From Candidatus Limnocylindria bacterium (GTDB lineage Bacteria > Chloroflexota > Limnocylindria > QHBO01): a stretch of 64,000 nt of DNA. Of the stretch, positions 335 to 27,657 are shown piece by piece. Location: positions 3,285 through 67,284 of the forward strand of contig DATBJR010000043.1 in NCBI GenBank assembly GCA_036556325.1, written 5' to 3'. Every line of letters starts with the position of its first letter. The first letter of the stretch is position 1. Made by a program: the position numbers and the translations under genes. The notes beneath the pieces are model-generated. The model searched no databases. It was not told where the DNA came from and worked only from the letters and a program-made list of their open reading frames with translations.

Positions 335-344
335 CGCCCGCGCC

Positions 345-1628: not shown

Positions 1629-1709
1629 GGCAGACTACCCCGACACCTCGCAGATGGTTGCGAGGCCCCATCAGCGGCGTGGCCCCGTGCGCCCGGTGGA
1701 TACGGTAGG

Positions 1710-3872: not shown

Positions 3873-3900
3873 CCTCCCCCTCCCGGCTACCCTCACGCCG

Positions 3901-5641
<1,741 letters not shown>

Positions 5642-5661
<20 letters not shown>

Positions 5662-6939: not shown

Positions 6940-6943
<4 letters not shown>
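5642..6943 (+). CDS. mak: maltokinase (maltose 1-phosphate-forming; Pep2/Mak), aminoglycoside-phosphotransferase-like fold
   Basis: Sits immediately after treS, and overlaps it by 20 nt (11 nt if the ATG at 5651 is used). The kinase-like motif [17 protein letters not shown] is present. Its position between treS and the glgX/malQ genes fits the GlgE pathway. Confidence 0.8.
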
Positions 6944-9053
<2,110 letters not shown>

Positions 9054-9057
<4 letters not shown>

Positions 9058-10883: not shown

Positions 10884-13081
10884 CCCTCGGGCAGCAGCAC
10901 CAGGGTGGCCAGTGGTGGCAGGGTCAGCGTGACCGATGCCGGCTGGCCGTGCCACGGCTCCGCATTGGCCTCGATGCCGCCCAGGTTCCCGAGGTTCGAG
11001 CCGCCGTAATGCTCCGAGTCGCTGTTCAGCGCCTCACGCCAGTGTCGCCGCCGGGGAACGCCGAGCCGGTACGCGCTGCGCGGCACCGGGGTGAGGTTCT
11101 GGACCACCACCGCCACCTCGTCACCGGCACGGCGGATCCAGCTGAACACCGACGACTCCACGTCGGAGGCATCGATCCAGGCGAAGGTCCCCGGTTCGGG
11201 GTCGGCCGCCCACAGCGCCGGGGTGGCGCGGTACAACGCCCCGAGGTCCGCCAGGAAGCGGCCGAAGCCGGCCCGCAGCGGCTCATCGGCCAGCGCGAAG
11301 TCGAGCGCCCGGTCGTGGCTCCACTCGGTCCAGGGCGCGAGCTCCGAGCCCATGAACAGCAGCTTCTTGCCCGGCTGGGTGTACATGTTGGCGATCAGGC
11401 AGCGCAGGTTGGCGAAGCGCTGCCACTCGTCGCCGGGCATCTTGGCCAGCAGCGAGCCCTTGCCGTGGACCACCTCGTCATGCGAGAGCGGCAGCACGAA
11501 GTGCTCGGTGTGCAGGTAGAGGGCCCGGAAGGTCAGCCTGTTGTGGTGGTAGCGCCGATGGACCGGATCCTCGTGGAAGTAGGCCAGCGTGTCGTGCATC
11601 CAGCCCATGTCCCATTTGAAGCCGAAGCCTAGCCCGCCCAGGTAGGTGGGTCGCGTGACGCCCGGGAAGGCGGTGGACTCCTCGGCGATGGTCACCACGC
11701 CCGGATGGCGGCCGTAGACCTTTTCGTTGACCTCGCGCAGGAAGGCAATCGCCTCCAGGTTCTCGTTGCCGCCGTACTGGTTGGGCTGCCACTCCCCGGC
11801 CTGGCGCGAGTAGTCGAGGTAGAGCATCGAGGCCACGGCGTCGACCCGCAGGCCGTCGATGTGGTAGCGGTCGCACCAGAACAGGGCGTTGGCCACCAGG
11901 AAGTTGCGCACCTCGGCGCGGCCGTAGTCGAAGATCAGCGTGCCCCAGTCAGGGTGCTGGCCGCGCTTGGGGTCGGCGTGCTCGTAGAGCGGCGTGCCAT
12001 CGAACTGGCGCAGGGCGAAATCGTCGTTGGGGAAATGCGCCGGCACCCAGTCGAGGATCACGCCGATCCCCGCCCGGTGCAGCGTGTCCACCAAGGCCCG
12101 GAAGTCGTCCGGCGTCCCGAAGCGCGCGGTCGGGGCGTAGTACCCGGTGACCTGGTAGCCCCACGAGCCGTCGAAGGGGTGCTCGGCCACCGGCAGCAGC
12201 TCGACGTGGGTGAAGCCGAAGCGCCGGCAGTGCTCCACCAGCCGCTCCCCGGCCTGGCGGTAGCCCAGCCAGGAGCCGTCGGGGTTCCGCATCCACGAGC
12301 CCAGGTGGACCTCGTAGATGGCCATCGGCTGGCGATACGGGTCGGTCACGGCCCGGCGCGCCATCCAGTCCGCATCGGTCCAGGCCTCGTCGGAGCCGAG
12401 GTCCCACACCCGGGACGCGGTCTCCGGCCGCACCTGCTGCGAGAAGGCCATGGGATCCGCCTTGACGCGCAGGCGCCCGTCGGCGCCGAGGACCTCGTAC
12501 TTGTAGAGCTCGCCGGCGCCGATCCCGGGGACGAATAGCTCCCACACGCCGGATGCTCCGAGCGAGCGCATCGGGAAGAGCCGTCCGTCCCAGCGGTCGA
12601 AGTCGCCGACCACCCGCACGCTGCGGGCGTTCGGCGCCCAGACGGCGAAGGCGACGCCTGCCACGCCGCTCGCGGTTCGGGGATGTGCGCCGAGCACCTC
12701 CCACAGCCGTTCGTGGCTGCCCTCGCCGATCAGGTGCAGGTCCAGCTCGCCAAGGGTCGGCAGGAAGCGATACGGGTCGCCCCGCTCCCAGGCGTTGCCG
12801 TCGGCGAAGCGGAAGCGGAGCCGGTACTCCGCTCCCGGGGCGAGCGGGGTGGCCGCCGCCCAGAGACCGCCACCCAGCGGTTCCATGGGCGTCGCCGCAT
12901 CACCGCCGAGCAGCTCCACGCCGGTCGCGTCGGGGTGGAAGGCACGGACCACGGACCCATGCTCGCCGCCGTGCAGTCCCAGGATCGCGTGCGGCTGGTG
13001 ATGCTCGCCGGCGGTCAGCCGGGCGGCCTCGGCGGCAGTCGGGCGCAGCAGGGGAGTGGTCGAGGGGGTGGGCCTAGCCAT
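10880..13081 (-). CDS. glgB: 1,4-alpha-glucan branching enzyme GlgB
   Basis: 733 aa with GH13_9 motifs ([54 protein letters not shown]). It is convergent with malQ and their 3' ends overlap slightly. Confidence 0.92.
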
Positions 13082-13772
13082 CGGCCTTGGCGCCGGCTAC
13101 GGATAGGTCGCGGTCCTGCATCTCCCAGGCATGGTCGAGGACGTGGTAGGCGGAGTGGCGGATGAGGTAGGGGATCGTCCACTTGCCCAGTGGCCGGCCC
13201 TCGGCGCGCCAGCCGCGCATCGCCTCCACGAAGCGATCCCGGTGGCCGGCACGGCCCTTGGCCGGCAGCAGCTCCTGCCACGCGGCCGGCTCGGGCACCT
13301 TGACACGCTTGGCGAAGTCGCCGCTCTCGACGCGCAGCACATGGCCGACGATCTCGTCGCGGGACCGGCCACCACCGCGCGGCCCGGGTCGCAGCTCGGC
13401 CGAGACCTGCCCCGCCACCTCGTCGAACTCGGCCCACGCCGCGCGCAGCAGCGCAATCCAGCGCGCGAAGGTGGCGTCGTCCATCGGCTCCCGGTCCTCC
13501 GCCGATGGTGCGAACGAGATGCCCCAGAAGTCGGTCGAGCCGGTGCCGGTGTGGTGGGCGACGACAGTGGTCGCCGCCTGACGCTCCAGCTCCGCGCCCA
13601 GGCGGGCACGCCGCGCCACCGGCAGATAGCGCGGCCGGTAGCTGCGCAGCTTCTCGACCGCCTCCTCTTCGCTCTTGCCGTTCCGCTCCAGGCCGGGCCA
13701 GTCGCCGGCGATGGCGACCCAGCGCTTTCCCTTCGGCGCCTCCTCGATCAGGACGCGCAACCGCTCAGTCAT
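13074..13772 (-). CDS. hypothetical protein; N-terminal HicB/UPF0150-like segment and C-terminal DinB/YfiT-like His-rich segment (tentative)
   Basis: Coherent ORF upstream of glgB. The N-terminus ([31 protein letters not shown]) resembles HicB-type antitoxin folds. The C-terminus ([13 protein letters not shown]) resembles DinB_2 metal-binding helices. Domain calls are weak. Confidence 0.5.
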
Positions 13773-13901
13773 CCCCTACACGCTACAGGACCAGTCCGGG
13801 GACCGTTCGAGGCGGGACCCGTGTGCTAGGGTTGCGACGCCCACCGAACCGACAGCGGAACCGTCGGTGCCACGGTCCGCGAAGCACCACGAGAGGAATC
13901 C

Positions 13902-14957
13902 TTGGGACTCTTCGACGGCCTGCTCGGCATCCTCAGCCACGATGTTGGCATCGACCTTGGGACGGCGAACACGCTGGTCACGGTCCGGCACCGCGGCATC
14001 GTCATCAGCGAGCCAAGCGTGGTGGCCATGGACACCCGCAGCAAGCGGGTCCTGGCCATCGGCGCGGAGGCCAAGCGGATGGTCGGTCGCACACCTGCCA
14101 ACATCGTCGCCATCCGGCCGCTGCGCGACGGCGTCATCAGCGACTTCGACGTCACCGAGCAGATGATCCGCTACTTCATCGCCAAGGTGCACGAGCGCTT
14201 CGCCCAGATCCGCCGGCCACGCGTCCTGGTCGGCATCCCGTCAGGGGTGACCGAGGTCGAGAAGCGTGCCGTGCGCGACGCGACCGTGAACGCCGGTGCG
14301 CGGTGGGCCCGTCTCATCGAAGAGCCCATGGCGGCCGCAATCGGCGCCGGGCTGCCGGTGTCGGAGCCGTCCGGCAGCCTGATCGTGGACATCGGCGGCG
14401 GGACGACCGAGGTGGCGGTCATCAGCCTGGGCGGCATCGTGGTCAGCCGCAGCGTGCGCATCGGTGGCGACGAGATGGACACCGACATCGTCAGCTTCGC
14501 GCGCCGGGAGTACAACCTGCTCATGGGCGAGCGCACCGCCGAGGAGATCAAGATCGCCGTCGGCTCTGCGTACCCAATCGAGGACAGCCGCACCGTCACG
14601 TTCCGCGGTCGCGACCTGCTCACCGGGCTGCCGCGCAGCGTGGAGGTGGGCAGCGATCAGATCCGCGAGGCGCTGGAGCCGTCCGTGGCGCAGATCATCG
14701 ACGCCATCAAGGAGACGATCGAGGAGACGCCGCCGGAGCTGGTGGCCGACATCATGGACCAGGGCATCGTCCTGGCCGGCGGCGGCGCGCTGCTCGCGGG
14801 GCTGGACAAGCGGGTGGCGGAGGCGACCCAGATGCCAGTCCACATCGCCGACGATCCGCTGACCTGCGTGGTGCGTGGCACCGGGCGCGTCCTGGAGGAC
14901 CTGGATGCCCTGGAGCGGGTCCTGGTCAGCGAGCAGTACACCCGCGCGCCGCGCTGA
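13902..14957 (+). CDS. mreB: rod shape-determining actin homolog MreB
   Basis: The GIDLGTANTLV start, an actin-fold phosphate loop and the IVDIGGGTTEVAVISLGG motif. Full length is 351 aa. Confidence 0.95.
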   Translation: MGLFDGLLGILSHDVGIDLGTANTLVTVRHRGIVISEPSVVAMDTRSKRVLAIGAEAKRMVGRTPANIVAIRPLRDGVISDFDVTEQMIRYFIAKVHERFAQIRRPRVLVGIPSGVTEVEKRAVRDATVNAGARWARLIEEPMAAAIGAGLPVSEPSGSLIVDIGGGTTEVAVISLGGIVVSRSVRIGGDEMDTDIVSFARREYNLLMGERTAEEIKIAVGSAYPIEDSRTVTFRGRDLLTGLPRSVEVGSDQIREALEPSVAQIIDAIKETIEETPPELVADIMDQGIVLAGGGALLAGLDKRVAEATQMPVHIADDPLTCVVRGTGRVLEDLDALERVLVSEQYTRAPR

Positions 14958-14984
14958 CGGGCGCGGCGGCATCGGCTCGAACCG

Positions 14985-15839
14985 ATGATCGGCGGACCGC
15001 ATCGCCGCAGCCGGAATGGGCTGTGGTTCGCGGCGTTCACCATCGTCTCGCTGCTGCTCCTGCTCGCGTCGCAGACGGAGGCCGCCCTGACCCTGCAGCG
15101 GGTGAGCGCCCGCGCGCTGGACCCGATCCGCCAGACGATCGGCGGCATCGGCGCGGGGATCGCTGGCGTCTTCGGGACCATCGGCGAGATCGACCGCCTC
15201 CGCAGCGAGAACGATGACCTGCGCAGCAGCCTGGCCGGGGCGCAGCAGCGGATCGCCGAGCTGCAGGAGGCGGCGGCTGAGAATGCGGAGCTGCGTGGGC
15301 TGCTGGGCCTGACCCAGTCGCTCGAGATGGACCTGCTGCCAGTGCGCGTCATCAGCCGCGATCCGTCCAACTTCACCTGGGACATCGGCATCGACGCCGG
15401 CACGGATGACGGCGTGGCGGTGGGCATGCCGGTGGTCGGTGCGGCCCAGGGGGCCGGCGCCCTGGCCGGCACGGTCGTCTCGGTCGGGGCCGATACGGCC
15501 ACCGTGCGCCTGATCGTGGACACCCGTTCCAGCGTCGTCGCGCTCGACCAGCGATCCCGCGCTTTGGGGCTGGTCCAGGGACAGCTCGGCGGGCAGCTGG
15601 TCATGGTCCAGGTCGATATCACCGACTCGCTGCAGGAGGGCGACGGCATCGTCAGTGCCGGCCTGGAGCTGTCGCGAGGTGCTGCGCGGAGCCCGTACCC
15701 GAAGGGCCTGCTCATCGGTGCCGTGCAGGCCGTGCAGCGGGACAGCAATGCCCTGACCCAGACCGGCTTCGTGCGACCCGCGCTGGACTTCCGGCAGCTC
15801 GATCGGCTCCTGGTCGTCCGCTCCTATCGGCAGGACTGA
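14985..15839 (+). CDS. mreC: rod shape-determining protein MreC
   Basis: Directly downstream of mreB. It has an N-terminal TM helix, a coiled-coil region (RLRSENDDLRS...ELQEAAAENAELR) and a C-terminal beta-rich domain. Confidence 0.8.
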   Translation: MIGGPHRRSRNGLWFAAFTIVSLLLLLASQTEAALTLQRVSARALDPIRQTIGGIGAGIAGVFGTIGEIDRLRSENDDLRSSLAGAQQRIAELQEAAAENAELRGLLGLTQSLEMDLLPVRVISRDPSNFTWDIGIDAGTDDGVAVGMPVVGAAQGAGALAGTVVSVGADTATVRLIVDTRSSVVALDQRSRALGLVQGQLGGQLVMVQVDITDSLQEGDGIVSAGLELSRGAARSPYPKGLLIGAVQAVQRDSNALTQTGFVRPALDFRQLDRLLVVRSYRQD

Positions 15840-15961
15840 CCCCGAATCCCTGACGCCGCGCCAGCGGTGCGTGGGCGCAACTGGCCCCAACGTCTGCCGC
15901 CGTCGCGACCATCGGGGCATGGAGGGCGATCCGCCGGGCCCGCACGCTTGGCGGCACACCC

Positions 15962-17731
15962 GTGCCCATGCCGTGCTCAGGGGACCGCGCATTGCCAGAC
16001 CGACTCCGCGCCATCGCCACCGCAGCCCTCACCGTCGCGCTGAGCTGGACGCTGCTGGGGGCCACTCCGGCGGCTGCGGCCGATCCGCTCAAGGTGGTGA
16101 TCATCGTGGGGCCGACCGGCTCGTTGACCGCCAGCTACCGGTCAGCCGGGAATGCCATCGCCGAGGTCGCCGTCGCGGCCGGCGCGGAGGTCGTCAAGGT
16201 CTACTCCCCGCGGGCGACCTGGGCCAGAGTCCGCCAGGCGGTGGAGGGCGCCAACGTCGTCATCTACCTGGGCCACGGCAACGGCTATCCCAGCCCGTAC
16301 AGCAGCACCGAGTGGACGGACAGGGTCAACGGCTGGGGCCTGAACCGCACCACCACCGGTGGCGACTCGGATGACTGGTCGAAGCACATGGTGTACTGCG
16401 GCCAGAAGGCCCTGGTGGGCACGCTGACGTCGGCGGACGGGGCGGCCCAGTGGAAGTACTGCGGTGGCGCGAGGGGCACCCAGGGCATTCACCCCGCCGC
16501 CAGCTGGGTGATGATCTACAACAGGGCCTGCTACACGCCCGGCGCCAGCGAGGGCTGGGACGTGAAGGCGACCCAGTCGGTCGCCTTCAAGCGCGTCAGC
16601 AACTACAGCTACCCGGCCCTCAAGGTCGGTGGCGGCGCCTACTTCGCCACCGACATGTATCGCGGCGCGGAGGGGCTGGTCGACCTGGTCCTGGCGCACC
16701 GCGACTGGACGTTCGGCGCCATCGCCGAGGCGGCGCCCGGCTACGACCTCGCGGCCCAGAGCCGGATGGAGCACCCGGACCTCCCGGGCCGCCAGCTGTG
16801 GATCCAGCGCACGGAGAACGGCATGGGCACCGACTACTGGTATGCGTATGCCGGCGACCCGAACCTGACCCCGTCCGGCGCGATGGGCGTCTATGTTCCG
16901 CCGCCGGCGCCGCAGGTGACTGCCGTGTCGCCGGCAGCCGGCACCTCCGACGCCACGACCGACACTGCCCTGACCGCCGCGTTCGACCTGCCGGTGACCG
17001 GCGTCAACGCCGCCTCGTTCCTGGTCCGCGACGCCTTCGGGCTGACCATGTCGGGCGTGGTGAGCTACAGCGCCGCCACGCGCACCGCCACCTTCACGCC
17101 GAGCACCCCGCTCGAGGCCGGGCTGCCGTACACCGCCAGCCTGACCAAGGGCATCAGGAGCCGCCTGGGGGCTCGCCTGGCACGGTACTCGTGGTCCTTC
17201 AGCGTGGCGGGTCCGACGGGCGCCGCGGTCACCCTGTACGACGAGCCGCAGGCGCTGGTGCTCGAGCCTGGCACCAACACCCGCTACCTGTTCACGCGCG
17301 ACGGCGTCCTGCGCGGGGAGCAGACGGCCACGCTCCTCGACGCCGCGCAGGTCACCACGTCCATCCGTCGCACGCTGCCGAACCAGTCGGGCACCTGGTT
17401 CTACGTCGACGCCGGCACCTGGGCGCACTACTGGCTGCGCGAGTCGAGCGCGGTCCACCTGGCCGATGCCGTGGCCGCGGCCACGACTGGCGGCGAGGAC
17501 GCGTTCTCGCCGGCGGCCCCGGTGCGCATCAAGCGCGGCACCCACACCGGGTACGCCTTCGACGGCGGGACGATGACGGCCCACAAGACGCTGACCCTGA
17601 CCGGCGGCCGTCGGGCTTACGCCGGCGAGCTGCGGAGCCTGCCCGGCCAGACCGGCCTCTGGTTCCACATCACTGCGGGCAGCTGGTCCGGCCGCTGGCT
17701 GCGCGCCTCGGACGTCGTCTACCTCGAGTAG
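15962..17731 (+). CDS. secreted multidomain protein: N-terminal domain with caspase-like His/Cys dyad context, one Big_5/SbsA-type Ig-like domain, two C-terminal copies of a novel ~80-aa Trp-rich repeat
   Basis: Signal peptide ending AAAADP. A hydrophobic strand + HG (ANVVIYLGHGNG, His at 16274-16276) and a hydrophobic strand + AC (SWVMIYNRACYTPG, Cys at 16529-16531). The Ig-like segment is VTAVSPAAG...TASLTKG. C-terminal repeats cover roughly 17222-17476 and 17504-17728. Confidence 0.75.
   Translation: MPMPCSGDRALPDRLRAIATAALTVALSWTLLGATPAAAADPLKVVIIVGPTGSLTASYRSAGNAIAEVAVAAGAEVVKVYSPRATWARVRQAVEGANVVIYLGHGNGYPSPYSSTEWTDRVNGWGLNRTTTGGDSDDWSKHMVYCGQKALVGTLTSADGAAQWKYCGGARGTQGIHPAASWVMIYNRACYTPGASEGWDVKATQSVAFKRVSNYSYPALKVGGGAYFATDMYRGAEGLVDLVLAHRDWTFGAIAEAAPGYDLAAQSRMEHPDLPGRQLWIQRTENGMGTDYWYAYAGDPNLTPSGAMGVYVPPPAPQVTAVSPAAGTSDATTDTALTAAFDLPVTGVNAASFLVRDAFGLTMSGVVSYSAATRTATFTPSTPLEAGLPYTASLTKGIRSRLGARLARYSWSFSVAGPTGAAVTLYDEPQALVLEPGTNTRYLFTRDGVLRGEQTATLLDAAQVTTSIRRTLPNQSGTWFYVDAGTWAHYWLRESSAVHLADAVAAATTGGEDAFSPAAPVRIKRGTHTGYAFDGGTMTAHKTLTLTGGRRAYAGELRSLPGQTGLWFHITAGSWSGRWLRASDVVYLE
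17222..17728 (+). repeat. protein-level tandem repeat module (2 copies) of a ~80-aa Trp-rich domain, consensus approx YDP-R-L-LRRG-HTGY-F---G-----------------G-W--V-SG-LAGYWLRES--VHL
   Basis: Seen directly when the C-termini of the three consecutive secreted proteins are aligned by eye. It has conserved RxGxHTGY and G(Y/R)W(L/V)RE(S/T) blocks. Confidence 0.7.
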
Positions 17732-17851
17732 CCCTGGCCCCGGGGGGATCGCCGCTGGCCCTTCCGTACCATGGTTCGGAGCGGCTGGGATCGGTAGGGT
17801 GGAGACCGCTGCGGTCATACGCGACCGCGGCTGCGATCCCGACCCCGCGAG

Positions 17852-20800
17852 GTGACCGACCCCATGCGCCGCCTGCCAGCCGCCATCCTCGGCCTCCTGC
17901 TCACCCTCGGCTCGATGCCGACCGCCGCCGTCCGCGCTGCTGATCCCTCCCCGGCCTCATCCGTCTCGCCGGAGCCGCTGGCGACGGGTGCGGTCCTCAC
18001 CGCCGACGGACGCGTCCTGCCACCGATGCCGGCCGGGATGGAGCAGACGTCGGTCCACGCCGAGATGCTCGCCGCCCATGCCGCCGATGTCGTGCGCTTC
18101 ACGCCGGGCGGCGCCCCATCGGTGCTGCTCACGCCCACCGGCAAGATCCAGATGGCGGGGGCCGCGGTGGCGCCGGATGGCGGAGCCGTCAGCGCGCAGG
18201 TCTCCGCCGCCGGGCTGCCGAACGGGCTGCGCAAGGAGGTGTTCGGCTTCCTGCCGTACTGGATGCTGTCCGGCTCGGCACTGTCGTCGATGAACTACCA
18301 CCTGGTCTCGACCATCGCCTACTTCAGCGTCAACGCCAAGATGACCGGCTACCTGGCCAAGGGCACCAGCACCAACCCCACGGCCGGCTGGGCCGGTTGG
18401 AAGAGCTCGGCCATGACCGGGGTGCTCAACCGGGCCCATGAGCAGGGGGTGCGGGTGGTGCTGACCGTCACGATGATGGCCTGGGACAGCGCCTCCGCCA
18501 GCCGGCAGGCGTCGCTGCTGCAGACGGCCAGCGCGCGCAGCCGGTTGGTGAACCAGATCGTATCGGCCGTGCGCGACCGCGGCGCCGATGGCGTCAACCT
18601 GGACTTCGAGCCGCTGGCGACGAGCCTCCGCGACGAGTACGTCAGCTTCGTCAAGCAGCTGAAGCGCGGGCTCGCCAACGCCGGCGTGGGCGATTACCTG
18701 ACGGTCAGCGTGATGGCCAGCGCAGCGACCTGGGCGACCGGCTACGACGTGGCGGGGCTGACGGCCGCCGACGCCGCCGACGCCCTGTTCGTGATGGGCT
18801 ACGACTACAACTGGTCCGGCTCGTCGCGCGCAGGCGGCGTGGCCCCGATCCAGAGCCCGTTCACGATCGACGTGGCCGGCACCATGGCCGACTTCCTGAC
18901 CCAGACCAGCGGCTCGAAGCTGATCTGGGGCGTGCCGTACTACGGCCGGACCTGGCCGACGAAGGCCAAGACCCTCAACTCGGCCACGCTCGGTGGCGGG
19001 TCGAAGGCGTACACCTACACCGGCCACCTGGCCGAGGCCGGGCGCTACGGCCGGCGCTGGGACGACGTGGGCAAGGTGCCGTGGTATCGCCACTGGGATG
19101 GCGCGGCCGGTCACTGGGTGCAGGGCTACTACGACGATTCGCATTCGCTGGGCGTGAAGTACGACCTCGTCAACTCGCGCGGCCTCAAGGGCACCGGCAT
19201 GTGGACCCTGCTCATGGACCAGGGCCGCGACGAGCTCTGGCGCCTGCTGGCGCGCAAGTTCGTGAACGACACGGCGCCGCCGGTCGGCGGCATCAGCCTG
19301 CTGCCGAGCTCGGTCGACGGGGAGGCCTTCAAGGTCAGCTGGCGCGCCCAGGACTACGCGTCGGGGGTATCGACCTACGGCGTGCAGTGGCGACGCCCGG
19401 GCGGCGTCTGGCAGCAGTGGCTGAGCAACACGAAGGCGACGTCGGCCTGGTTCACCGGGACCGCCGGTCGCACCTACCAGTTCCGGATGCGCGCCATCGA
19501 CGCCAAGGGCAACGTCCAGCCCTGGACGAGTCCTCCGGCGACGCCGACGTCGCTGACCCCGGCCGCCTTCGGCAAGGTGGTGGCCGCCACGCTCAACGTG
19601 CGGACCGGGCCCGGGACGGGCTACGGCATCATCGACAGCGCCGCCGCTGGCGACCTGGTGTACGTCCTCGAAGGGCCCGTGAGCTCCGGCGGATACGAGT
19701 GGTATCGGGTCCAGTACGGCTTCACCGAATGGCCCAGCGCCGACTACCCGACCATCGCCTGGATGGCCGGCAGCTCGTCCGGCACGCCGATGATCGCGCC
19801 GGCGCAGGCGCCAGCCGTGACCAGGCTGCGCCCCTTCGTGTCCCAGGGCAGCCGAACCGCCGCATTCAGCCCGAATGGAGACGGCGTGCAGGACAGCGCC
19901 ACCATCGGTTTCAACCTGGCGGGGGCCACGAGCGCCACCCGGCTCGAGATCGTCGATGACGGCGGGGCGGTCGTCCGCTCCATTGGCCTCGGCGCACGTT
20001 CGGCCGGCGCCAACCAGGCGAGCTGGAACGGGCAGCTGGCATCCGGCGATCCGGCGCCCGACGGCCGTTACCTGGCCCGCATCGTGGCGACCGATGGAAG
20101 CGGCACGCTGCACGTCGGCCCGAGCGGCACCCTCAGCGCCGCCGCCCTGAAGCGCTGGGGCATCACCGTAGATGACGCTGCACCCGGCGTGGACGCCACG
20201 CCCGGGTCCGGCACATCGATGGTGCCGGCCATGGCCAAGGTCGAGGTCGCCTTCACCGAGCCGATGGCGGGGCTGGACGGCGCCGCGGTCCAGCTCACGG
20301 CTGATGGCGTGCCCCTGGCCGCGCACGCGTACGTCCGCGCCGACGACCGCAGCGTCCTGCTCCGAGCGGACGATCCGCTGCCCACCGGCGCTGCCATCGG
20401 CGTGGTCCTGGACGCGTCGGTGCGGGACGCGGCCGGCAATCGGCCGGCGATGACCGCCTGGACCTTCAGCACGGCGCCCGGCCGGGCCTACGACCCGGCA
20501 CGACACGGCACGCTGCGGCGCGGCACGCGGACCGGGTACGCCATCGGCGCCGATGGCGACCTGCTCCTCCGCCACACCGCGGGGCTGTCCGCGGCGCGGG
20601 ACGTCACGCTCAGCCAGCGCGCCGTGCTCCCGAACCTGCCGGGTCGCTGGCTGTATGCCAGGAGCGGCCCCCTCGCCGGCCGCTGGCTGCGAGAGACGGC
20701 CAACCAGCACGTCGACGGGTTCGTCTCGCGCACGACCTATGACACGGCCCAGCGGATCAAGCTGCGCGCGGGCGATCACCTCGGCTACCGCTTCACGCTC

Positions 20801-21208
20801 GACGGTCGCGTGCTGCGCACCAAGCGGCTCAGCCTGCGCAGGGGCGTGCTTGCCGCCTCGTCGGTGCGCGCCGTGATCAATGGTGTGACCTGGTGGCGGC
20901 TGTCTGGCGGGGCGCTGGACGGCTACTGGGTCGAGCAATCCGCGGCGGTGCATCGCCGCGGCGCCGTGGGCAGGCTGCAGTTCGCCGCTCCGCCGCGCGT
21001 CGACGTCGCCGCCGGCACGTACACGGCGTACAGCTACGACTGGCTGGGACGGGTCCGCGGCTCGGTGACGGCGAAGGTCGGCAGCAGCACCGGTGTCCGC
21101 GTCGCGGCCTGGGCCGTCATCAACGGCACGCCCCGCTATCTCGTCAGCAGCGGGCCCTGGGCGGGCATGTGGCTGGCGGAGACCTCCGACACCCGGCTGC
21201 ACGTCTGA
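17852..21208 (+). CDS. secreted GH18 (chitinase/peptidoglycan-glycosidase-like) multidomain protein: GH18 - FN3 - SH3b - FlgD_Ig-like - Big_5 Ig-like - 3x novel C-terminal repeat
   Basis: Signal peptide AVRAADP. The GH18 core FGFLPYW...DGVNLDFEP...MWTLLMD sits at about 18233-19219, with a DGxNxDFE variant of the DGxDxDWE motif at 18587-18610. FN3-like about 19277-19537. SH3b-like (ATLNVRTGPGTGYGII...YEWYRVQY) about 19565-19771. The FSPNGDGVQD FlgD_Ig-like motif lies within about 19817-20116. A Big_5 domain at about 20177-20479. Three repeat copies at about 20483-21205. Confidence 0.85.
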   Translation: MTDPMRRLPAAILGLLLTLGSMPTAAVRAADPSPASSVSPEPLATGAVLTADGRVLPPMPAGMEQTSVHAEMLAAHAADVVRFTPGGAPSVLLTPTGKIQMAGAAVAPDGGAVSAQVSAAGLPNGLRKEVFGFLPYWMLSGSALSSMNYHLVSTIAYFSVNAKMTGYLAKGTSTNPTAGWAGWKSSAMTGVLNRAHEQGVRVVLTVTMMAWDSASASRQASLLQTASARSRLVNQIVSAVRDRGADGVNLDFEPLATSLRDEYVSFVKQLKRGLANAGVGDYLTVSVMASAATWATGYDVAGLTAADAADALFVMGYDYNWSGSSRAGGVAPIQSPFTIDVAGTMADFLTQTSGSKLIWGVPYYGRTWPTKAKTLNSATLGGGSKAYTYTGHLAEAGRYGRRWDDVGKVPWYRHWDGAAGHWVQGYYDDSHSLGVKYDLVNSRGLKGTGMWTLLMDQGRDELWRLLARKFVNDTAPPVGGISLLPSSVDGEAFKVSWRAQDYASGVSTYGVQWRRPGGVWQQWLSNTKATSAWFTGTAGRTYQFRMRAIDAKGNVQPWTSPPATPTSLTPAAFGKVVAATLNVRTGPGTGYGIIDSAAAGDLVYVLEGPVSSGGYEWYRVQYGFTEWPSADYPTIAWMAGSSSGTPMIAPAQAPAVTRLRPFVSQGSRTAAFSPNGDGVQDSATIGFNLAGATSATRLEIVDDGGAVVRSIGLGARSAGANQASWNGQLASGDPAPDGRYLARIVATDGSGTLHVGPSGTLSAAALKRWGITVDDAAPGVDATPGSGTSMVPAMAKVEVAFTEPMAGLDGAAVQLTADGVPLAAHAYVRADDRSVLLRADDPLPTGAAIGVVLDASVRDAAGNRPAMTAWTFSTAPGRAYDPARHGTLRRGTRTGYAIGADGDLLLRHTAGLSAARDVTLSQRAVLPNLPGRWLYARSGPLAGRWLRETANQHVDGFVSRTTYDTAQRIKLRAGDHLGYRFTLDGRVLRTKRLSLRRGVLAASSVRAVINGVTWWRLSGGALDGYWVEQSAAVHRRGAVGRLQFAAPPRVDVAAGTYTAYSYDWLGRVRGSVTAKVGSSTGVRVAAWAVINGTPRYLVSSGPWAGMWLAETSDTRLHV
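20483..21205 (+). repeat. same ~80-aa repeat module, 3 tandem copies at the C-terminus of the GH18 protein
   Basis: The copies begin RAYDPARHGTLRRGTRTGYAI, TTYDTAQRIKLRAGDHLGYRF and LQFAAPPRVDVAAGTYTAYSY. Each ends in a G-x-W-[LV]-x-E block. Confidence 0.7.
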
Positions 21209-21321
21209 CGCAGGCACCCCATCGGTACCAGACCGATTAGGTCATGCCCCGGCCGCATGGTGCTCCGTAGGGTGAGCCCGAACTCATCCGACTGACCACT
21301 GCCAGAGGGGGACTCATCCAG

Positions 21322-22323
21322 ATGCCCCAGTCCACGGGACGCGGACGCCTCGTCGCCGCACTCACCGCCCTGATGCTGCTGGCGGGCGCCGTCGCCGCCT
21401 CGCCAGCCACCACCCTCGCCTACGGTGGCGACGGGCTGCGGGCAGCCGCCAACCGGCTCCGCGCCGACGCCCATGTCCCGCCGGTGGCCGGCACCGCGCT
21501 GCTCGACGACATCGCCAGCCACCGCGCCAGCCAGCTGGTCCGCCTTGACCGCCTGGAGCACGACATGGACTACGTCACCCATCGGCTCAACGACGCCGGG
21601 GTGTGCTGGAAGCAGGCGGGCGAGATCCTGGCCTGGGAGAGGGGTGCCTCCGATTACGACTACCGGCGCACCGGGCAGGCCTGGTTCGATTCCGACACGC
21701 ACCGGGACATCATGCTGGGCGCCGACTACAACGCCGCGGGTGGCGCCTGGCGCAGCGCGCCGCACCTGCAGCATTACTCGGTCATGGTCCTGGTGGAGCT
21801 GTGTGGCACGACCACCAGCTCGGTCAGCATCAGCGCCCTCAGGCCGCGCCGGACCTACGACCCGGACCGGCCGCTCGTCCTGCGCCGCGGCCGGCATACC
21901 GGCTACAAGCTGAGCGCGGAGGGATTCGTCGTGTCGCGCCGGACCGTGTCGTATGCCCACCGTGCCACGCGAACCACCTCCGGACGCGTCTACGTCGGCA
22001 ACACGGCCTACCTGAAGGTCAGCAGCGGGAAGCTGCGGGGCTACTGGGTTCGGGAGAGCAGCCACACCCACGTCAGGGGCATGACCCAGTACCGCGAGTT
22101 CCAATCAGCGCGGGCCATCTCGGTGGCGGCCGGCCGCCACCGCGGCCATCGCTTCGATTGGCTGGGACGCGTCACCGACTCCCGCGGCCGCATCTATCGC
22201 CACGCCACCCTGACCGCCGCCACCGCCCGCGCGGTGATCAACGGGCGCGTCTACCTGCGCTTCGCGAACGGCTGGCTGGCCGGACACTGGGTGCGGGACA
22301 CCGGCCACATCACCTTCAGGTAG
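21322..22323 (+). CDS. secreted CAP/SCP (YkwD-like) domain protein with two C-terminal copies of the novel repeat
   Basis: Signal peptide. A YkwD-like signature (AWFDSDTHRDIMLGADYNAAGGAW) is present. Repeat copies are at about 21847-22080 and 22081-22320. Confidence 0.7.
   Translation: MPQSTGRGRLVAALTALMLLAGAVAASPATTLAYGGDGLRAAANRLRADAHVPPVAGTALLDDIASHRASQLVRLDRLEHDMDYVTHRLNDAGVCWKQAGEILAWERGASDYDYRRTGQAWFDSDTHRDIMLGADYNAAGGAWRSAPHLQHYSVMVLVELCGTTTSSVSISALRPRRTYDPDRPLVLRRGRHTGYKLSAEGFVVSRRTVSYAHRATRTTSGRVYVGNTAYLKVSSGKLRGYWVRESSHTHVRGMTQYREFQSARAISVAAGRHRGHRFDWLGRVTDSRGRIYRHATLTAATARAVINGRVYLRFANGWLAGHWVRDTGHITFR
21847..22320 (+). repeat. same ~80-aa repeat module, 2 tandem copies at the C-terminus of the CAP-domain protein
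   Basis: RTYDPDRPLVLRRGRHTGYKL...GYWVRESSHTHV and ISVAAGRHRGHRFDWLG...GHWVRDTGHITF. Confidence 0.7.
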
Positions 22324-22359
22324 GGGCCACGGTCCCCACGCGTCGTAGAATCGGCGCCG

Positions 22360-23091
22360 ATGTCTATCGCCGTTGCCCGCCGTCCCGATGGACGCGCCAC
22401 CACCCAGCTCCGGCCGGTCAAGATCGTGACCGACTACCTGAAGTTCGCCGAGGGTTCGGTTCTGATCCGGGTCGGGGATACGCGCGTCATCTGCGCGGTC
22501 ACCATCGAGGATCGGGTGCCTGGCTGGCTACGCGGCAAGGGCACCGGCTGGGTCACCGCCGAGTACAGCATGCTGCCGCGCGCCGGGACCGAGCGCAGCC
22601 AGCGTGAGGCGCACACCGGTCGCATCGGCGGGCGGACGCACGAGATCCAGCGCCTGATCGGACGGTCGCTGCGCGGGGTCATGGACCTGGCGAAGCTCGG
22701 CGAACGCACCGTCACCGTCGACTGCGACGTGATCCAGGCGGATGGCGGCACGCGTACGGCCAGCATCACCGGCGCCTACGTGGCGCTGGCCCGCGCACTG
22801 AAGAAGTACGGCATGGCGCACCTGCTGACCGGGCAGGTGGCCGCCGTCAGCGTCGGCATGTCGGGCGGCACGCCGCTGCTGGATCTGAACTACGCGGAAG
22901 ACTCGACGGCCGACGTCGACTTCAACGTGGTGATGACCGATGACGAGCGATTCGTCGAGGTGCAGGGCACGGCTGAGCACCGCGCCTTCGACCGCGCGCA
23001 GATGAACGCGATGATCGACCTGGCGGCCGCCGGCATCCGCCAGCTGTTCGAGCTGCAGCGCACGGCCATCGACGCACCGGCTGCCGAGTGA
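22360..23091 (+). CDS. rph: ribonuclease PH
   Basis: Whole-length match to the RNase PH family ([37 protein letters not shown]). Confidence 0.95.
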
Positions 23092-23696
23092 GGGACCTCC
23101 TGCTGGCGACCGCGAATCGCGGCAAGCAGCGAGAATTCGGCCGTCTGCTGGCCGGCATCCCCGGCCGGCTCGTCTTCCCGCAGGAGGTGGGCATCGACCT
23201 GGATGTGCCGGAGCCGTATCCGACCTACGCCGGCAACGCGGCTGCCAAGGCGGAGGCCTACTGCCTCGCATCCGGGCTGCTGACCCTGGCCGATGATTCC
23301 GGCATCGAGGTCGAGGCACTCGACTGGGGGCCCGGCGTGGTGACCGCACGGTTCGGGGGCGATGACGTGGCCGATCGGGTGGGGCTCCTGCTGGACGCGG
23401 TCGGCGACACGTCGCGTCGGGCGGCGCGCATGGTCTGCGTCCTGGCCTTGGCCACCCCTGCCGCGGGACCGGGCGGGTCGCCACGAATCGAGATCTTCCA
23501 CGGAGAGATGAGTGGCGAGCTGACGCGCCAGGCACGCGGCGATGGCGGCTTCGGCTACGACCCCGTCTTCCTCGGGCCGAACGGCCGCACGAACGCCGAG
23601 CTGCCGGAGGGCGAGAAGGACGCGATCTCGCATCGGGGCCGCGCGGTCGCGGCGGCCATGCCGCGGCTTCGCGAGCTGCTGCAGGCGCCGGCATGA
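23088..23696 (+). CDS. rdgB: non-canonical purine NTP pyrophosphatase (dITP/XTP pyrophosphatase) RdgB/Ham1 family
   Basis: [13 protein letters not shown]-terminus and GFGYDPVF motif. The classic rph-rdgB gene pair, with a 4-nt overlap. Confidence 0.9.
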
Positions 23697-24286
23697 GCGA
23701 GCCGGCGTTCGTCCACCCGACTGCCGAGGTCGAGCCGGGCGCGGAGGTCGGCAGCGGATCCCGCATCTGGAGCCACAGCCAGGTGCGAGCCGGGGCACGC
23801 ATCGGGTCGGGCTGCAACGTCGGCCGCAACGTCTTCGTGGACGTCGACGTGATCGTCGGCGACCGGGTGAAGATCCAGAACAACGCCAGCCTGTTCCGGG
23901 GCGTGACCGTGGAGGATGGCGTCTTCATCGGTCCGCACGTGTGCCTCACCAACGACCGCCAGCCCCGCGCGGTGAACGCCGATGGCAGCCTGAAGACGGA
24001 CGACGACTGGCAGGTGACGCCCATCCTGGTGCGCACCGGCGCGGCAGTCGGTGCGGCCAGCGTCGTGCTGCCGGGCGTGACGATCGGCCGCTGGGCCATG
24101 GTCGGGGCCGGCTCGGTGGTCACCCGCGACGTCGCCGATCACGAGCTCGTGTTTGGCAGCCCCGCCCGCCGGCGCGGCAGCGTCTGCGTCTGCGGCCAGC
24201 CACTGCCCGATGGGCTCGACGGTGCCCCGTTTGCCGGCAGCTGCCCGGCCTGCGGACGCCCGTTTCCGCCCGAGGCCGAGCGGTGA
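23693..24286 (+). CDS. left-handed beta-helix (hexapeptide-repeat) sugar N-/O-acetyltransferase (WbpD/PglD/NeuD-like) with a C-terminal Cys4 zinc-ribbon-like tail
   Basis: Repeated [LIV]G-x-x-x-x hexapeptides (IGSGCNVGRNVFVDVDVIVGDRVKIQNNA...). The C-terminus is CVCGQPLPDG...GSCPACG. The ATG overlaps the rdgB stop. Confidence 0.8.
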   Translation: MSEPAFVHPTAEVEPGAEVGSGSRIWSHSQVRAGARIGSGCNVGRNVFVDVDVIVGDRVKIQNNASLFRGVTVEDGVFIGPHVCLTNDRQPRAVNADGSLKTDDDWQVTPILVRTGAAVGAASVVLPGVTIGRWAMVGAGSVVTRDVADHELVFGSPARRRGSVCVCGQPLPDGLDGAPFAGSCPACGRPFPPEAER

Positions 24287-25377
24287 GGGTCGTCACCGTG
24301 GTCGGTGCCCGTCCGCAGTTCATCAAGGCCGCACCGGTGAGCCGCCAGCTGCGGCCGCGGCACCGGGAGATCCTGGTGCACACCGGCCAGCACTACGACG
24401 ACGCCATGAGCGCAGCCTTCTTCCGCGAGCTCGAGTTGCCGGACCCCGATCTCAACCTGGAGGTCGGCAGCGGGACGCACGGGGCGCAGACGGGGGAGAT
24501 GCTGCGCGCGCTGGAGCCGGTGCTGCTGGAGCACGAGCCCGACGGCGTGCTGGTCTACGGCGACACCAACTCCACTTTGGCCGGCGCACTGGCAGCGGCC
24601 AAGATCGCCTATCCCGGGGGCCGCCGTCCGTGGCTGGCGCACGTGGAGGCGGGGCTGCGCTCGTTCAACCGGGCGATGCCCGAGGAGCGCAACCGCATCG
24701 TCGCCGATCACCTGGCGGACCTGCTGCTGGCGCCGACGCCGGCCGCGGCCAGCCAGCTGTCGGCTGAAGGGCTGGGCGAGCGTACCCGGGTGGTGGGTGA
24801 CGTCATGGCCGATGCCGTCTGCTGGGCCGCCGATCGCGCCGATCTGCACCTGCCCGCCGAGGCCGAGCAGCGACCCGGCTTCGTGCTGCTCACGCTCCAC
24901 CGGGCCGAGAACGTGGATGATCCGCGCCGCCTGGCCGCCTGCCTGGCCATGCTGCCGCACGATCGCCCGGTGATCTGGCCGATCCACCCCCGGACCGCGG
25001 CCGCGCTGAGCGCCGCCGGACTCGCGCCGGCGGCCAACGTCTGCGTGCTCGAGCCGGTCGGCTACCTGCCGATGCTGGCGCTCGAGCGTGCCGCGGCGGC
25101 CGTCGCCACCGACTCCGGCGGCGTGCAGAAGGAGGCCTACCTCGCCGGCACGCCGTGCATCACGCTGCGCGCCGAGACCGAGTGGGTCGAAACCGTCGCT
25201 GCCGGCTGGAACCGGGTCGCCGGCGAGGATCCCGATGCGCTGCGGGCGGCCCTGGCCGATGCGGCGTTCATGGACCGCTCCCGGGCACGGCCCGAGCTCT
25301 TCGGCGACGGCCACGCCGCGGAACGCATCGTCGCCGCGCTGGAGCGGCTTGACGTGGCATTCCCGGCCTCCGGATGA
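24283..25377 (+). CDS. wecB: UDP-N-acetylglucosamine 2-epimerase (non-hydrolysing)
   Basis: VVGARPQFIKAAPV N-terminus, HVEAGLRSFN and DSGGVQKEAY motifs. The GTG at 24283 overlaps the upstream stop (GTGA). The 611-aa track ORF from 23542 is the same frame read through upstream. Confidence 0.9.
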   Translation: MRVVTVVGARPQFIKAAPVSRQLRPRHREILVHTGQHYDDAMSAAFFRELELPDPDLNLEVGSGTHGAQTGEMLRALEPVLLEHEPDGVLVYGDTNSTLAGALAAAKIAYPGGRRPWLAHVEAGLRSFNRAMPEERNRIVADHLADLLLAPTPAAASQLSAEGLGERTRVVGDVMADAVCWAADRADLHLPAEAEQRPGFVLLTLHRAENVDDPRRLAACLAMLPHDRPVIWPIHPRTAAALSAAGLAPAANVCVLEPVGYLPMLALERAAAAVATDSGGVQKEAYLAGTPCITLRAETEWVETVAAGWNRVAGEDPDALRAALADAAFMDRSRARPELFGDGHAAERIVAALERLDVAFPASG

Positions 25378-26372
25378 CCGGCGAGGCGCTCCGCGTCGGG
25401 GTCATCGGCCTGGGGAGCATGGGCCAGCATCACGCCCGGGTCTGGTCGTCGCTGCCCGGTGCCGAGCTGGTGGCGGTCGCCGATCCGCGCGCCGACGTGC
25501 TGGAGCGCGCCACCGCGGCGACCGGCTCGCGCGGGTACGCCGATGCGCTGGAGATGCTGGCTGGCGAACGGCTGGACGTCGTCAGCGTGGCAGCGCCGAC
25601 GTCCCTGCACTGCGAGCTCACGGTGGCCGCCCTGCGCGCCGGGGGCAACGTCCTGGTCGAGAAGCCAATCGCCGCCGACCGGCGCGAGGCGCAGACGATG
25701 ATGGAGGCCGCGGCGGTCGCCGGCCGCCTGCTGACGGTCGGCCATATCGAGCGCTTCAACCCGGCCATCGTCGAACTGCGCCGCCGCCTCGGCCTTGGCG
25801 AGCTGGGCCGCATCTTCGAGGTTCGGGCGGAGCGGCTGGGACCGTTCCCGGACAGGATCCGCGACGTCGGAGTGGTTGTGGACCTCGCGCCCCACGACCT
25901 GGACGTCATGCGCTTCCTGCTCGGCTCGGACCCGGTGCGGGTCTACGCGGAGACCGAGCAGCGCATCCACACCGATCACGAGGACCTCTTCGTGGGCGTG
26001 ATCAAGTTCGCCAACGGCGCGGTCGGCCTGCTCGATATCAACTGGCTGACGCCCACCAAGCAGCGGCGGCTGTCGGTGACGGGTGAAGGCGGGATGTACG
26101 TGGCGGACTACCTGTCGCAGGAGCTGACCTTCTTCGCCAACCCGTCCGATGCCTCCGTCGCGGCGGGTCCGTCGCAGCCGCGCCACATCGAGCGGCGCGA
26201 GCCGCTGGAGGTCGAGCTCGAGGCCTTCGTCGCCGCGGTGCGCGACGGCGGGCCTCCACCGGTCGAACCGCGCGAGGCGCTGGTGGCGCTGCAGCTGGCG
26301 CGGGCCATGGTCGAGGCCGCCAACACCGGCAACGCGCTGAGCGGCCCGGCGCTGGCCGAGGCGCTGCGGTGA
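25374..26372 (+). CDS. Gfo/Idh/MocA-family NAD(P)-dependent oxidoreductase (WbpB-like sugar-nucleotide dehydrogenase candidate)
   Basis: An N-terminal Rossmann segment VGVIGLGSMGQHHAR and a GHIERFNP motif. It overlaps wecB by 4 nt. Confidence 0.85.
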   Translation: MTGEALRVGVIGLGSMGQHHARVWSSLPGAELVAVADPRADVLERATAATGSRGYADALEMLAGERLDVVSVAAPTSLHCELTVAALRAGGNVLVEKPIAADRREAQTMMEAAAVAGRLLTVGHIERFNPAIVELRRRLGLGELGRIFEVRAERLGPFPDRIRDVGVVVDLAPHDLDVMRFLLGSDPVRVYAETEQRIHTDHEDLFVGVIKFANGAVGLLDINWLTPTKQRRLSVTGEGGMYVADYLSQELTFFANPSDASVAAGPSQPRHIERREPLEVELEAFVAAVRDGGPPPVEPREALVALQLARAMVEAANTGNALSGPALAEALR

Positions 26373-26382
26373 GGCGCCGGAC

Positions 26383-27657
26383 ATGAGGATCGCGGTGGTC
26401 GGCCTGGGCCAGATCGGGCTGCCCCTGGCCGTGCAGTACGCGTCGCGGGGCCACGAGGTCATCGGCTGCGACGTCGACGCTCGCGTCGTCGACAGTGTCA
26501 ACCGTGGCGAGCCGCCGCACCCGGGCGAGGCCGAGGTCGACGAGCGGCTGCCTGGTCTGGTGGCGTCGGGTCGGCTGCGGGCGACCACGGACGATCGGGC
26601 CGGGGTGGACGGCGCCGAGACAGTGGTGGTCATCGTGCCGGTGGCCGTGGATGGCGAGCGGCGCATCGACTTCGCCGCGATCGACGGAGCGACGCGCGAC
26701 GTGGGCAGCGGCCTCTCCGCGGGAACCCTTGTCGTATTCGAGACGACCCTGCCGGTGGGGACCACCCGGAACCGGCTGACGCCGGTGCTCGCGGCCGAGA
26801 GCGGCCTCACCCTCGAACGCGACCTCTTCGTCGCCTTCTCGCCGGAGCGCGTCCTGGTGGGCCGCGTGCTGGTCGACCTGCGGCGCTATCCCAAGGTCGT
26901 GGGCGGCATCGGGCCGGAGTCGGCGCGCCGGGCCGTCGGCTTCTACACGGAGGTCCTCGATGCCGGGACAGAGATCCGGACGCTGGCCAGCGCCGAGGCC
27001 GCGGAGATGACGAAGCTGGCGGAGACGACGTACCGCGACGTCAACATCGCACTGGCCAACGAGTACGCCCGTTTCGCCGCGGCGCGCGGGATCGACGTGA
27101 TGGAGGTCATCGACGCCGCCAATTCCCAGCCGTACAGCCACGTGCATCGGCCAGGCGTGGGCGTCGGCGGGCACTGCATCCCGGTCTACCCCTATTTCCT
27201 CTTCACCGATGCACCCGAGATGCGCCTGCCGCCGGCGGCCCGTCGCGTGAACGACGAGATGGCCGCCTGGGCGGTGGCGGCCGCCGACGAGGCCCTGGGC
27301 GGCCTGCGCGGCGTTCCGGTGCTGGTGCTCGGCATCGCCTACCGCGGCGACGTGCGCGAGGATGCCTTCAGCTCCGCCTTCGCCCTGCGCGATGCCCTGC
27401 GCGCGGCCGGCGCCGAGGTGCACGGCCACGATCCCTACTTCGGCTCCGATGAGCTCGCGGCGCGCGGCTTTGCGCCGTGGCGGCCGGGCGACTCGGCGTC
27501 GATTCGCGTCGTCTTCCTGCAGGCGGACCATGCGGCGTATCGCGACCTCGACCTGGGCGCCATCGGCTCGCTGGAGCTGGTGGTCGACGGCCGCAACGCG
27601 CTTGACCCCGATGCCGTGCGCGCCGCGGGCGTCCGCTACCTCGGCATCGGTCGCTGA
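26383..27657 (+). CDS. wecC: nucleotide-sugar dehydrogenase, UDP-N-acetyl-D-mannosamine dehydrogenase (WecC/Cap5O)-like
   Basis: An N-terminal Rossmann segment IAVVGLGQIGLPLA. The catalytic Cys context GVGGHCIPVYPYF is typical of WecC/Cap5O rather than UGDH. It lies downstream of wecB. Confidence 0.8.
   Translation: MRIAVVGLGQIGLPLAVQYASRGHEVIGCDVDARVVDSVNRGEPPHPGEAEVDERLPGLVASGRLRATTDDRAGVDGAETVVVIVPVAVDGERRIDFAAIDGATRDVGSGLSAGTLVVFETTLPVGTTRNRLTPVLAAESGLTLERDLFVAFSPERVLVGRVLVDLRRYPKVVGGIGPESARRAVGFYTEVLDAGTEIRTLASAEAAEMTKLAETTYRDVNIALANEYARFAAARGIDVMEVIDAANSQPYSHVHRPGVGVGGHCIPVYPYFLFTDAPEMRLPPAARRVNDEMAAWAVAAADEALGGLRGVPVLVLGIAYRGDVREDAFSSAFALRDALRAAGAEVHGHDPYFGSDELAARGFAPWRPGDSASIRVVFLQADHAAYRDLDLGAIGSLELVVDGRNALDPDAVRAAGVRYLGIGR

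Follow-up and report, generated by a model that had tools for sequence, protein, structure and literature searches.

In other bacteria, the operon slot behind mreB and mreC is usually taken by mreD, mrdA and rodA. The choice of hydrolase in MreB-guided growth is known for few model species, where the enzymes are endopeptidases. In Bacillus subtilis, the secreted wall hydrolases LytE and CwlO were shown experimentally to be coupled to the MreB-directed elongation machinery; both belong to the NlpC/P60 endopeptidases, and their genes lie at a distance from mreBCD. Among the glycoside hydrolases of family 18 (GH18), SleL is described as a peptidoglycan N-acetylglucosaminidase (Lambert & Popham 2008, via PMC11218509, PMC10653849). 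The GW modules of Firmicutes are reported to keep proteins on lipoteichoic or wall teichoic acid (PMC4944223, PMC10335673). Here we analysed a stretch of 64,000 nucleotides from a Candidatus Limnocylindria bacterium of the Chloroflexota (contig DATBJR010000043.1 of assembly GCA_036556325.1), called the window, in which the gene of a large secreted GH18 protein lies behind mreB, mreC and a second secreted gene. The class-wide linkage of a GH18 gene to mreBC and a second secreted protein is new. The linkage to mreBC is the most interesting result; it is co-inheritance and not by itself co-function. For the GH18 protein we propose, with a probability of about 0.5, the role of a peptidoglycan endo-β-N-acetylglucosaminidase anchored in the wall.

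The genes follow each other on the same strand in the order mreB, mreC, the gene of a secreted protein of 589 residues (p589), the GH18 gene, a CAP gene, rph, rdgB and sugar-nucleotide genes, with gaps of 113-132 bp on either side of the GH18 gene. A first-pass annotation had placed the GH18 gene directly after mreC, which had to be corrected because the p589 gene intervenes. The mreD, pbpA (mrdA) and rodA families were not found among the scanned open reading frames (ORFs) of the window that were supported by the G+C content of the third codon position (GC3). The neighbourhood was then compared in other genomes. A scan of species-representative genomes, with DGVNLDFE among the search patterns, yielded more than 545 loci with a relative, of which 80 were kept. 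Synteny was determined by tblastn with probes from the window, and loci in which the upstream DNA extended over 8.3 kb or more were taken as informative (n = 51). In all 51 of these species-level loci, mreB and mreC precede the GH18 gene in the same orientation, confirming that the context is conserved in relatives, and in 49 of them the N-terminal domain of p589 is encoded between mreC and GH18. The linkage of mreBC, p589 and the GH18 gene holds down to the 42% identity of the Limnocylindrales, an order whose loci have rmlA/B/D inserted between mreC and the p589 gene and in which the accessory domains are different. Conservation of the CAP gene and of the rph-rdgB surroundings is limited to the closer Limnocylindria relatives. 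When positions 13600-24400 were scanned for promoter and terminator consensus sequences, no promoter was found, and the two terminator-like matches, both within the p589 ORF, were at chance level.

The G+C content of the window is 72%, which gives rise to long chance ORFs in several frames. The ORF at 17852-21208(+) is a genuine coding gene, as marked by its codon-position GC of 0.66/0.58/0.93. A 1086-residue antisense ORF was rejected as a gene; its values of 0.93/0.57/0.66 are the antisense pattern, an artefact of high GC. The product was known beforehand as a GH18 protein, since an NCBI record of 1114 residues from a Ca. Limnocylindria metagenome-assembled genome, deposited and annotated as 'glycosyl hydrolase family 18 protein', is 100% identical to it. 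The start is probably the ATG at 17864, which replaces the GTG at 17852 and the length of 1118 residues read at first pass, because this GTG falls within a Shine-Dalgarno-like AGGTGA located 8 nt upstream of the ATG and because the identical deposited protein has 1114 residues. Residue numbers refer to the 1114-residue protein; in the ORF counted from the GTG they are higher by four.

Membership in family 18 was established with PF00704, which matched the catalytic domain above its cut-off (104.6 vs 29.6 bits, E 1e-29). The motif DGVNLDFE, with the catalytic Glu kept and the middle Asp replaced by Asn, was found as first read. In an alignment of 84 orthologs with 44-86% identity, D242, G243, N245, L246, D247, F248 and E249 were invariant, as were M311, G312, Y313, D314 and D452, and the Trp of strand 8 (W447) was present in 83. 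The protein has the D-x-E (D247, E249) of the family and also the residues that line subsite -1, namely the Tyr and Asp of M-x-Y-D (M311, Y313, D314) and the strand-8 Trp, whereas the middle Asp of DxxDxDxE, the equivalent of ChiB D140, is Asn245. An alignment artefact was rejected as the cause, since HMMER set Asn245 opposite the middle Asp of DGxDxDWE (DGCDIDWE in 8hw6 and DGIDIDWE in 6le7); proper alignment to canonical chitinases did not restore a full DxDxE. The Asn was also rejected as the mark of a pseudo-enzyme, and the protein is expected to be active, because the other catalytic residues are invariant or nearly so.

For a non-catalytic GH18-fold lectin, a chitinase-like protein that only binds glycans, the one substituted residue of DxxDxDxE could be cited; such a lectin is very improbable indeed, as the acid/base Glu or the Asp next to it is lost in the chitinase-like proteins known to be inactive, whereas D247, E249, Y313 and D314 are invariant here, W447 nearly so, and an active chitinase (5xwf) has the same Asn.

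To follow the distribution of the Asn, relatives of the catalytic domain were searched exhaustively with HMMER. After clustering at 50% identity, 6339 clusters were obtained at E < 1e-3 and 787 at E < 1e-30. Asn occupied the variant position in 112 of the 121 scorable sequences among the best 146 cluster representatives. The best PDB match of the catalytic domain was YdhD (3cz8, 2e-21), followed by 4wiw and SleL/YaaH (~1e-12). In these solved relatives the middle Asp is replaced by T in YdhD, H in YaaH (4s3k), V in 4wiw and N in 4q6t and 5jh8, and the active chitinase 5xwf of the fungus Rhizomucor miehei likewise has Asn (DGLNLDWE). A peculiarity of this protein or lineage was rejected on these grounds. 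A residue other than Asp is the norm in the YdhD/YaaH-type clade, and the position is not conserved across all GH18 clades. DGxN[LIV]DFE is the signature of a large uncharacterised GH18 subfamily akin to YdhD and YaaH(SleL). Its Asn-bearing members come from several phyla, Lentisphaerota and Marinimicrobia included, and some have sorting tails of the type IX secretion system (T9SS). Of the first-pass comparison with peptidoglycan-directed GH18 proteins, it holds that the YdhD/YaaH-type relatives also lack the middle Asp, but the Asn belongs to a multi-phylum subfamily. As a clade signature, the variant motif tells nothing special about this protein and is dropped as a distinctive feature.

The closest described proteins were then compared. 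The spore-cortex GH18 enzymes YdhD (3cz8) and SleL/YaaH (4s3j, 4s3k) of Bacillus share the D-x-E, the M-x-Y-D and the replacement of the middle Asp (T, H) with the GH18 protein. The identity is only ~30%, and YdhD and YaaH carry N-terminal LysM domains, whereas no LysM match was obtained in the GH18 protein with Pfam at E <= 1. With its 1114 residues, the latter also differs by a putative Ig/SH3 stalk, putative GW-like anchors and the linkage to mreBC. The structural-genomics entries 4q6t (AGINLDFE) and 5jh8 (SGINVDFE) have the same Asn variant and belong to the same YdhD-related clade, but are single-domain proteins of ~320-350 residues, named 'glycosyl hydrolase family 18' and 'probable chitinase' in the PDB. 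More than 100 full-length orthologs with 44-86% identity have a common architecture, and many of them bear the JGI label 'spore germination protein YaaH'. This name is misleading because LysM domains and a sporulation context are missing and because architecture and linkage are different; the GH18 gene is surrounded by mreBC, by genes for secreted wall proteins and sugar-nucleotide enzymes and by rph/rdgB, not by sporulation or germination genes. For the DGxNxDFE subfamily, the automatic names 'chitinase' and 'spore germination protein YaaH' are probably wrong.

The genomic contexts of five distant subfamily members were inspected, and no chitin-utilisation genes were found in them. The subfamily member P0380 carries an Amidase_3 domain (MurNAc-L-Ala amidase; MurNAc, N-acetylmuramic acid) as a fusion, and P0399 adjoins BacA, with FtsE-FtsX-M23 near. 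Together with the locus of P0387, described next, these findings point to peptidoglycan rather than chitin, which is suggestive, not conclusive. The locus of a further member, P0387, from an unrelated T9SS-bearing bacterium (L083, 1-14842), has the GH18 gene among two fusions of a GH3(NagZ-like) and a β-lactamase fold, an SSF transporter, an ornithine/diaminopimelate decarboxylase, NamZ of the exo-N-acetylmuramidase family and a TonB-dependent receptor; it is apparently a peptidoglycan-scavenging gene set.

The domains of the GH18 protein are listed with the neighbouring genes in Table 1. No lipobox Cys was found in the translation of the signal peptide. Of the accessory domains named at first pass, SH3_3, FlgD_ig and Big_5 were above the Pfam thresholds and three units of ~80 residues follow them, whereas FN3 remained below its cut-off; other support for an FN3-like domain comes from precomputed PF00041 matches on several orthologs. 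Between the signal peptide and the barrel lies a conserved segment of ~90 residues (17939-18214, ORF residues ~30-120) with the consensus GRVLPPxP...PSVHAEMLAxHA...FxPGGxP, for which no family match was obtained. It could be a pro-region or a regulatory segment.

Table 1. Positions of the GH18 gene, its domains and other genes in the window, counted from the first nucleotide of the window
Feature	Position	Strand	Basis or remark
GH18 multidomain gene	17864..21208	+	GC3 0.93; identical NCBI protein; AGGTGA upstream of ATG
Predicted Sec signal peptide (MRRLPAAILGLLLTLGSMPTAAVRA followed by AD)	17864..17938	+	inferred from the translation by eye
GH18 catalytic domain (ORF aa ~122-480)	18215..19291	+	Pfam PF00704
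Catalytic motif DGVNLDFE	18587..18610	+	ORF aa 246-253 = 242-249 of the 1114-aa protein; Asp and Glu kept
MGYDY motif (Tyr/Asp equivalent to ChiB Y214/D215)	18794..18808	+	M, G, Y, D invariant in 84 orthologs
FN3-like domain, sub-threshold	19310..19534	+	Pfam fn3 E 3.8e-4, 21.1 bits vs cut-off 25
Bacterial SH3 (SH3_3) domain	19589..19747	+	Pfam 30.2 bits vs cut-off 27
FlgD_ig Ig-like domain	19892..20098	+	Pfam 4e-14
Big_5 Ig-like domain	20177..20473	+	Pfam 9e-10
Three ~80-aa GW/SH3b-like wall-binding repeats (putative)	20483..21202 (20483-20719, 20723-20962, 20969-21202)	+	AlphaFold2, Foldseek, unit HMM, alignment
mreB	13902..14957	+	Pfam MreB_Mbl 4e-145
mreC	14985..15839	+	Pfam MreC 1e-32; TIGR00219 over cut-off
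Conserved secreted partner p589, 589 aa	15962..17731	+	signal peptide, N-domain (~16058-16930), Big_5, two GW-like repeats (17225-17464, 17492-17728)
Secreted CAP/SCP-domain protein, two GW-like repeats (21844-22080, 22087-22320)	21322..22323	+	Pfam CAP; weak YkwD-like match
TagO-like GT4	37156-38121		
LCP ligase	38118-39686		
TagA/WecG	54181-54975		
Two TagB/F glycerophosphotransferases	59498-62145		
Four sulfotransferase genes	36240-36968, 55050-55937, 55939-56838, 56835-57749		

The C-terminal 240 residues consist of the three ~80-residue units. With Pfam, no match was obtained on residues 880-1118 at E <= 5, SH3_8/GW included, and the homologs gave only weak Choline_bind_4 matches. An AlphaFold2 model of residues ~877-1118, calculated from an alignment of 37 sequences, showed three all-β units with a predicted local distance difference test score (pLDDT) of 96. 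When this model was searched with Foldseek, the GW autolysin of Listeria (5jqc, 1e-4, probability 1.00) and the GW domains of InlB (1m9s, probability 0.99) were found, followed by the teichoic-acid-binding domains of Lactobacillus SlpA (8alu, 7qeh) and the repeats of staphylococcal AtlE (4epc). The best matches were all wall-targeting modules of Firmicutes, with probabilities of 0.93-1.00; their template modelling (TM) scores were low because the query consists of three domains. The first-pass reading of three wall modules is borne out by this confidently modelled GW/SH3b fold. Like the GW proteins of Firmicutes (InlB, the Ami/Auto-type autolysins, LygA, the Atl repeats and the SlpA anchor), the protein has tandem SH3-like β modules of ~80 residues at the C-terminus of a secreted wall enzyme. 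It differs from them in the motif, which is G-x-W and not GW, in the missing sequence match to SH3_8/GW and in the phylum.

The same unit was found in the flanking secreted proteins, twice in p589 and twice in the CAP protein, and with the three of the GH18 protein all seven could be aligned in register. A hidden Markov model (HMM) built from the units also detected them on ORFs of ~910-985 residues in the loci of five relatives; the one of these ORFs that was annotated with Pfam, from locus L002, has Peptidase_S8 and Big_5. The repeats occur on four different secreted enzyme families. Because it is found across several secreted proteins, the unit is putatively a modular anchor. As modelled, the repeats are predicted to be wall-binding modules of the GW/SH3b type, which would make them a new GW-like anchor family in Chloroflexota.

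For the N-terminal domain of p589, profile searches found no sequence family, and PDB searches with the single sequence and with a profile matched only the Big_5 part. In the AlphaFold2 model of p589 (pLDDT 86.6), two invariant residues, the His of GHGNG and the Cys of ACY, are located after strands 3 and 4, respectively, which corresponds to the His-Gly/Ala-Cys placement of clan CD on a caspase-like sheet. The top Foldseek matches were caspase-4/1/11 and separase; they were weak (E 7e-3, TM 0.3-0.38). Peptidase_C50 matched weakly in 10 of 30 homologs, with a best E of 0.023, and the N-terminus gave a weak match to the NCBIfam entry NF052336, 'peptidoglycan hydrolase' (E 6e-4), of which no trace was found in the literature. 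It is reasonable to guess, though not a finding, that p589 belongs to the clan-CD-like cysteine hydrolases; it may represent a new family of cysteine hydrolases.

We propose that the GH18 protein would be exported by the Sec pathway and then held non-covalently on the cell wall. Its TIM barrel would use the set of residues for substrate-assisted catalysis, namely the acetamido-positioning Asp, the acid/base Glu, the Tyr and Asp of M-x-Y-D and the strand-8 Trp, and would cleave at a β-linked N-acetylglucosamine (GlcNAc) in subsite -1. The likeliest substrate would be the cell's own peptidoglycan, cut by a SleL-like activity. Because catalysis by GH18 enzymes depends on a gluco-configured 2-acetamido sugar in subsite -1, the bond cleaved would be GlcNAc-β1,4-MurNAc. 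The FN3-like, SH3b, FlgD_Ig and Big_5 domains would serve as a stalk, and the three GW/SH3b-like modules would tether the enzyme to the wall, where the teichoic-acid-type polymer predicted from the window is a plausible ligand. Travelling with mreB, mreC and the putatively GW-anchored His/Cys protein p589, the enzyme could be one half of a hydrolase pair for the remodelling of the sacculus in rod-shaped bacteria.

Several points weigh against a peptidoglycan enzyme anchored in the wall and working with MreBC. We know of no biochemically characterised member of the DGxNxDFE subfamily. The characterised peptidoglycan-active GH18 enzymes are described, in the sources consulted, as acting only on spore cortex fragments and not on vegetative sacculi, and the GH18 paralogs of B. 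subtilis are named there as candidates by similarity only. The LysM domains of YdhD/YaaH are lacking. The Limnocylindrales orthologs are without GW-like repeats, so anchoring by these repeats is not universal. Three of the five distant-member contexts were uninformative, and the use of DGVNLDFE as a search pattern makes the motif counts in the scanned loci ascertainment-biased. Finally, the synteny, the gaps of 113-132 bp and the uninformative promoter and terminator scan do not show co-transcription or functional coupling.

The first-pass annotation had suggested a role in wall remodelling tied to elongation. Its first part stands, since a wall-directed GH18 enzyme is best supported and the mreBC context is class-wide, whereas the tie to elongation comes from synteny. 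To LytE and CwlO the GH18 protein is a functional analogy; it is a glycosidase and is linked to MreB by gene order alone. That it acts specifically in elongation is plausible but less likely than not, and the data would fit equally well if it served to separate cells, to turn over the wall or to process another wall polymer. Rather unlikely, in our estimate, is the further proposal that the post-mreBC slot in Limnocylindria encodes a dedicated pair of wall hydrolases, the caspase-fold-like p589 and the GH18 protein, which in this lineage would be held by GW-like anchors on a teichoic-acid-type, possibly sulfated polymer and would act as elongation-specific 'space-maker' autolysins. If it were true, this would be the first case of MreBC being genetically hard-wired to a cutter of glycan strands together with a putative cutter of peptides. 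A glycosidase and a second secreted protein behind mreBC across an abundant uncultured class of Chloroflexota are a testable candidate for a solution different from that of the model species. The GW-like anchors, together with the predicted teichoic-acid-type pathway, would add evidence for a Gram-positive-style envelope in the lineage, and the pointing of the contexts to peptidoglycan is new for the large DGxNxDFE subfamily.

Two other substrates were weighed, each of which we consider improbable. The enzyme might cleave a GlcNAc-containing secondary wall polymer, of the teichoic-acid type or of a ManNAc/rhamnose type (ManNAc, N-acetylmannosamine), that is trimmed or released during growth. 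Polymer genes do flank the GH18 gene in both orders, as UDP-sugar modification genes downstream of it here and, in Limnocylindrales, as rmlABD inserted between mreC and p589, and the window has TagO-like, TagA, TagB/F, LCP, flippase, AT3-SGNH and sulfotransferase genes. These flanking polymer genes vary between the two orders, whereas the GH18 domain and its motif stay constant, which argues for a substrate common to both orders, such as peptidoglycan. Linkages of ManNAc(A) or rhamnose are, in addition, unsuited to GH18 chemistry.

Alternatively, the protein might be a cell-surface chitinase or chitodextrinase, displayed by the GW-like modules, that obtains carbon and nitrogen from environmental chitin or acts against fungi, its position behind mreBC being a historical accident. 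GH18 is mainly a chitinase family, the active chitinase 5xwf shares the Asn variant, and the T9SS-tailed distant relatives resemble secreted degradative enzymes. Limnocylindria are soil and freshwater heterotrophs (PMC10608941), and a literature search found no publication on GH18 or chitin use in this class. Against a chitinase, neither the window nor the five contexts inspected elsewhere yielded a chitin-binding module, a GH20 or genes for chitobiose transport or catabolism, and the closest solved relatives are peptidoglycan-related and not processive chitinases. The spread of relatives over more than 545 species-level genomes is housekeeping-like and not typical of a nutrient-scavenging chitinase, and class-wide synteny with shape genes at a single locus would be unusual for nutrient acquisition.

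The polymer genes of the window (Table 1) belong to a teichoic-acid-type set at 37156-39686 and 48887-62145, which also holds a Wzx-type flippase, a Wzy_C protein and an AT3-SGNH acyltransferase. Judged by these predicted functions, the window appears to encode a teichoic-acid-type pathway, and the four sulfotransferase genes hint at a sulfated wall polymer. A Wbp-like UDP-sugar cluster at 23693-27657 comprises a hexapeptide acetyltransferase, a 2-epimerase, a GFO oxidoreductase and a UDP-sugar dehydrogenase. With tblastn, no homolog of a DegT aminotransferase was found anywhere in the window; in the loci L001 and L002 a DegT gene is located between the epimerase and the oxidoreductase, and 38 fetched loci have a DegT homolog. 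Two GC3-supported ORFs, of 232 residues at 13074-13772 (-) and of 442 residues at 47657-48985 (+), gave no Pfam match at E <= 0.01. When the window was scanned for Rfam families and tRNAs, a tRNA-Pro (37046-37122) was the only match, and nothing was detected near the GH18 gene. On the upstream side, radC is located at 32-334, and between radC and mreB (window 32-13081) the minus strand carries an α-glucan cluster of the GlgE pathway with glgE, a TreS-like amylase, a maltokinase, glgX, malQ and glgB. In L079, a locus from Limnocylindrales, radC precedes mreB at a distance of ~1.3 kb, and a single oxidoreductase gene separates the two.

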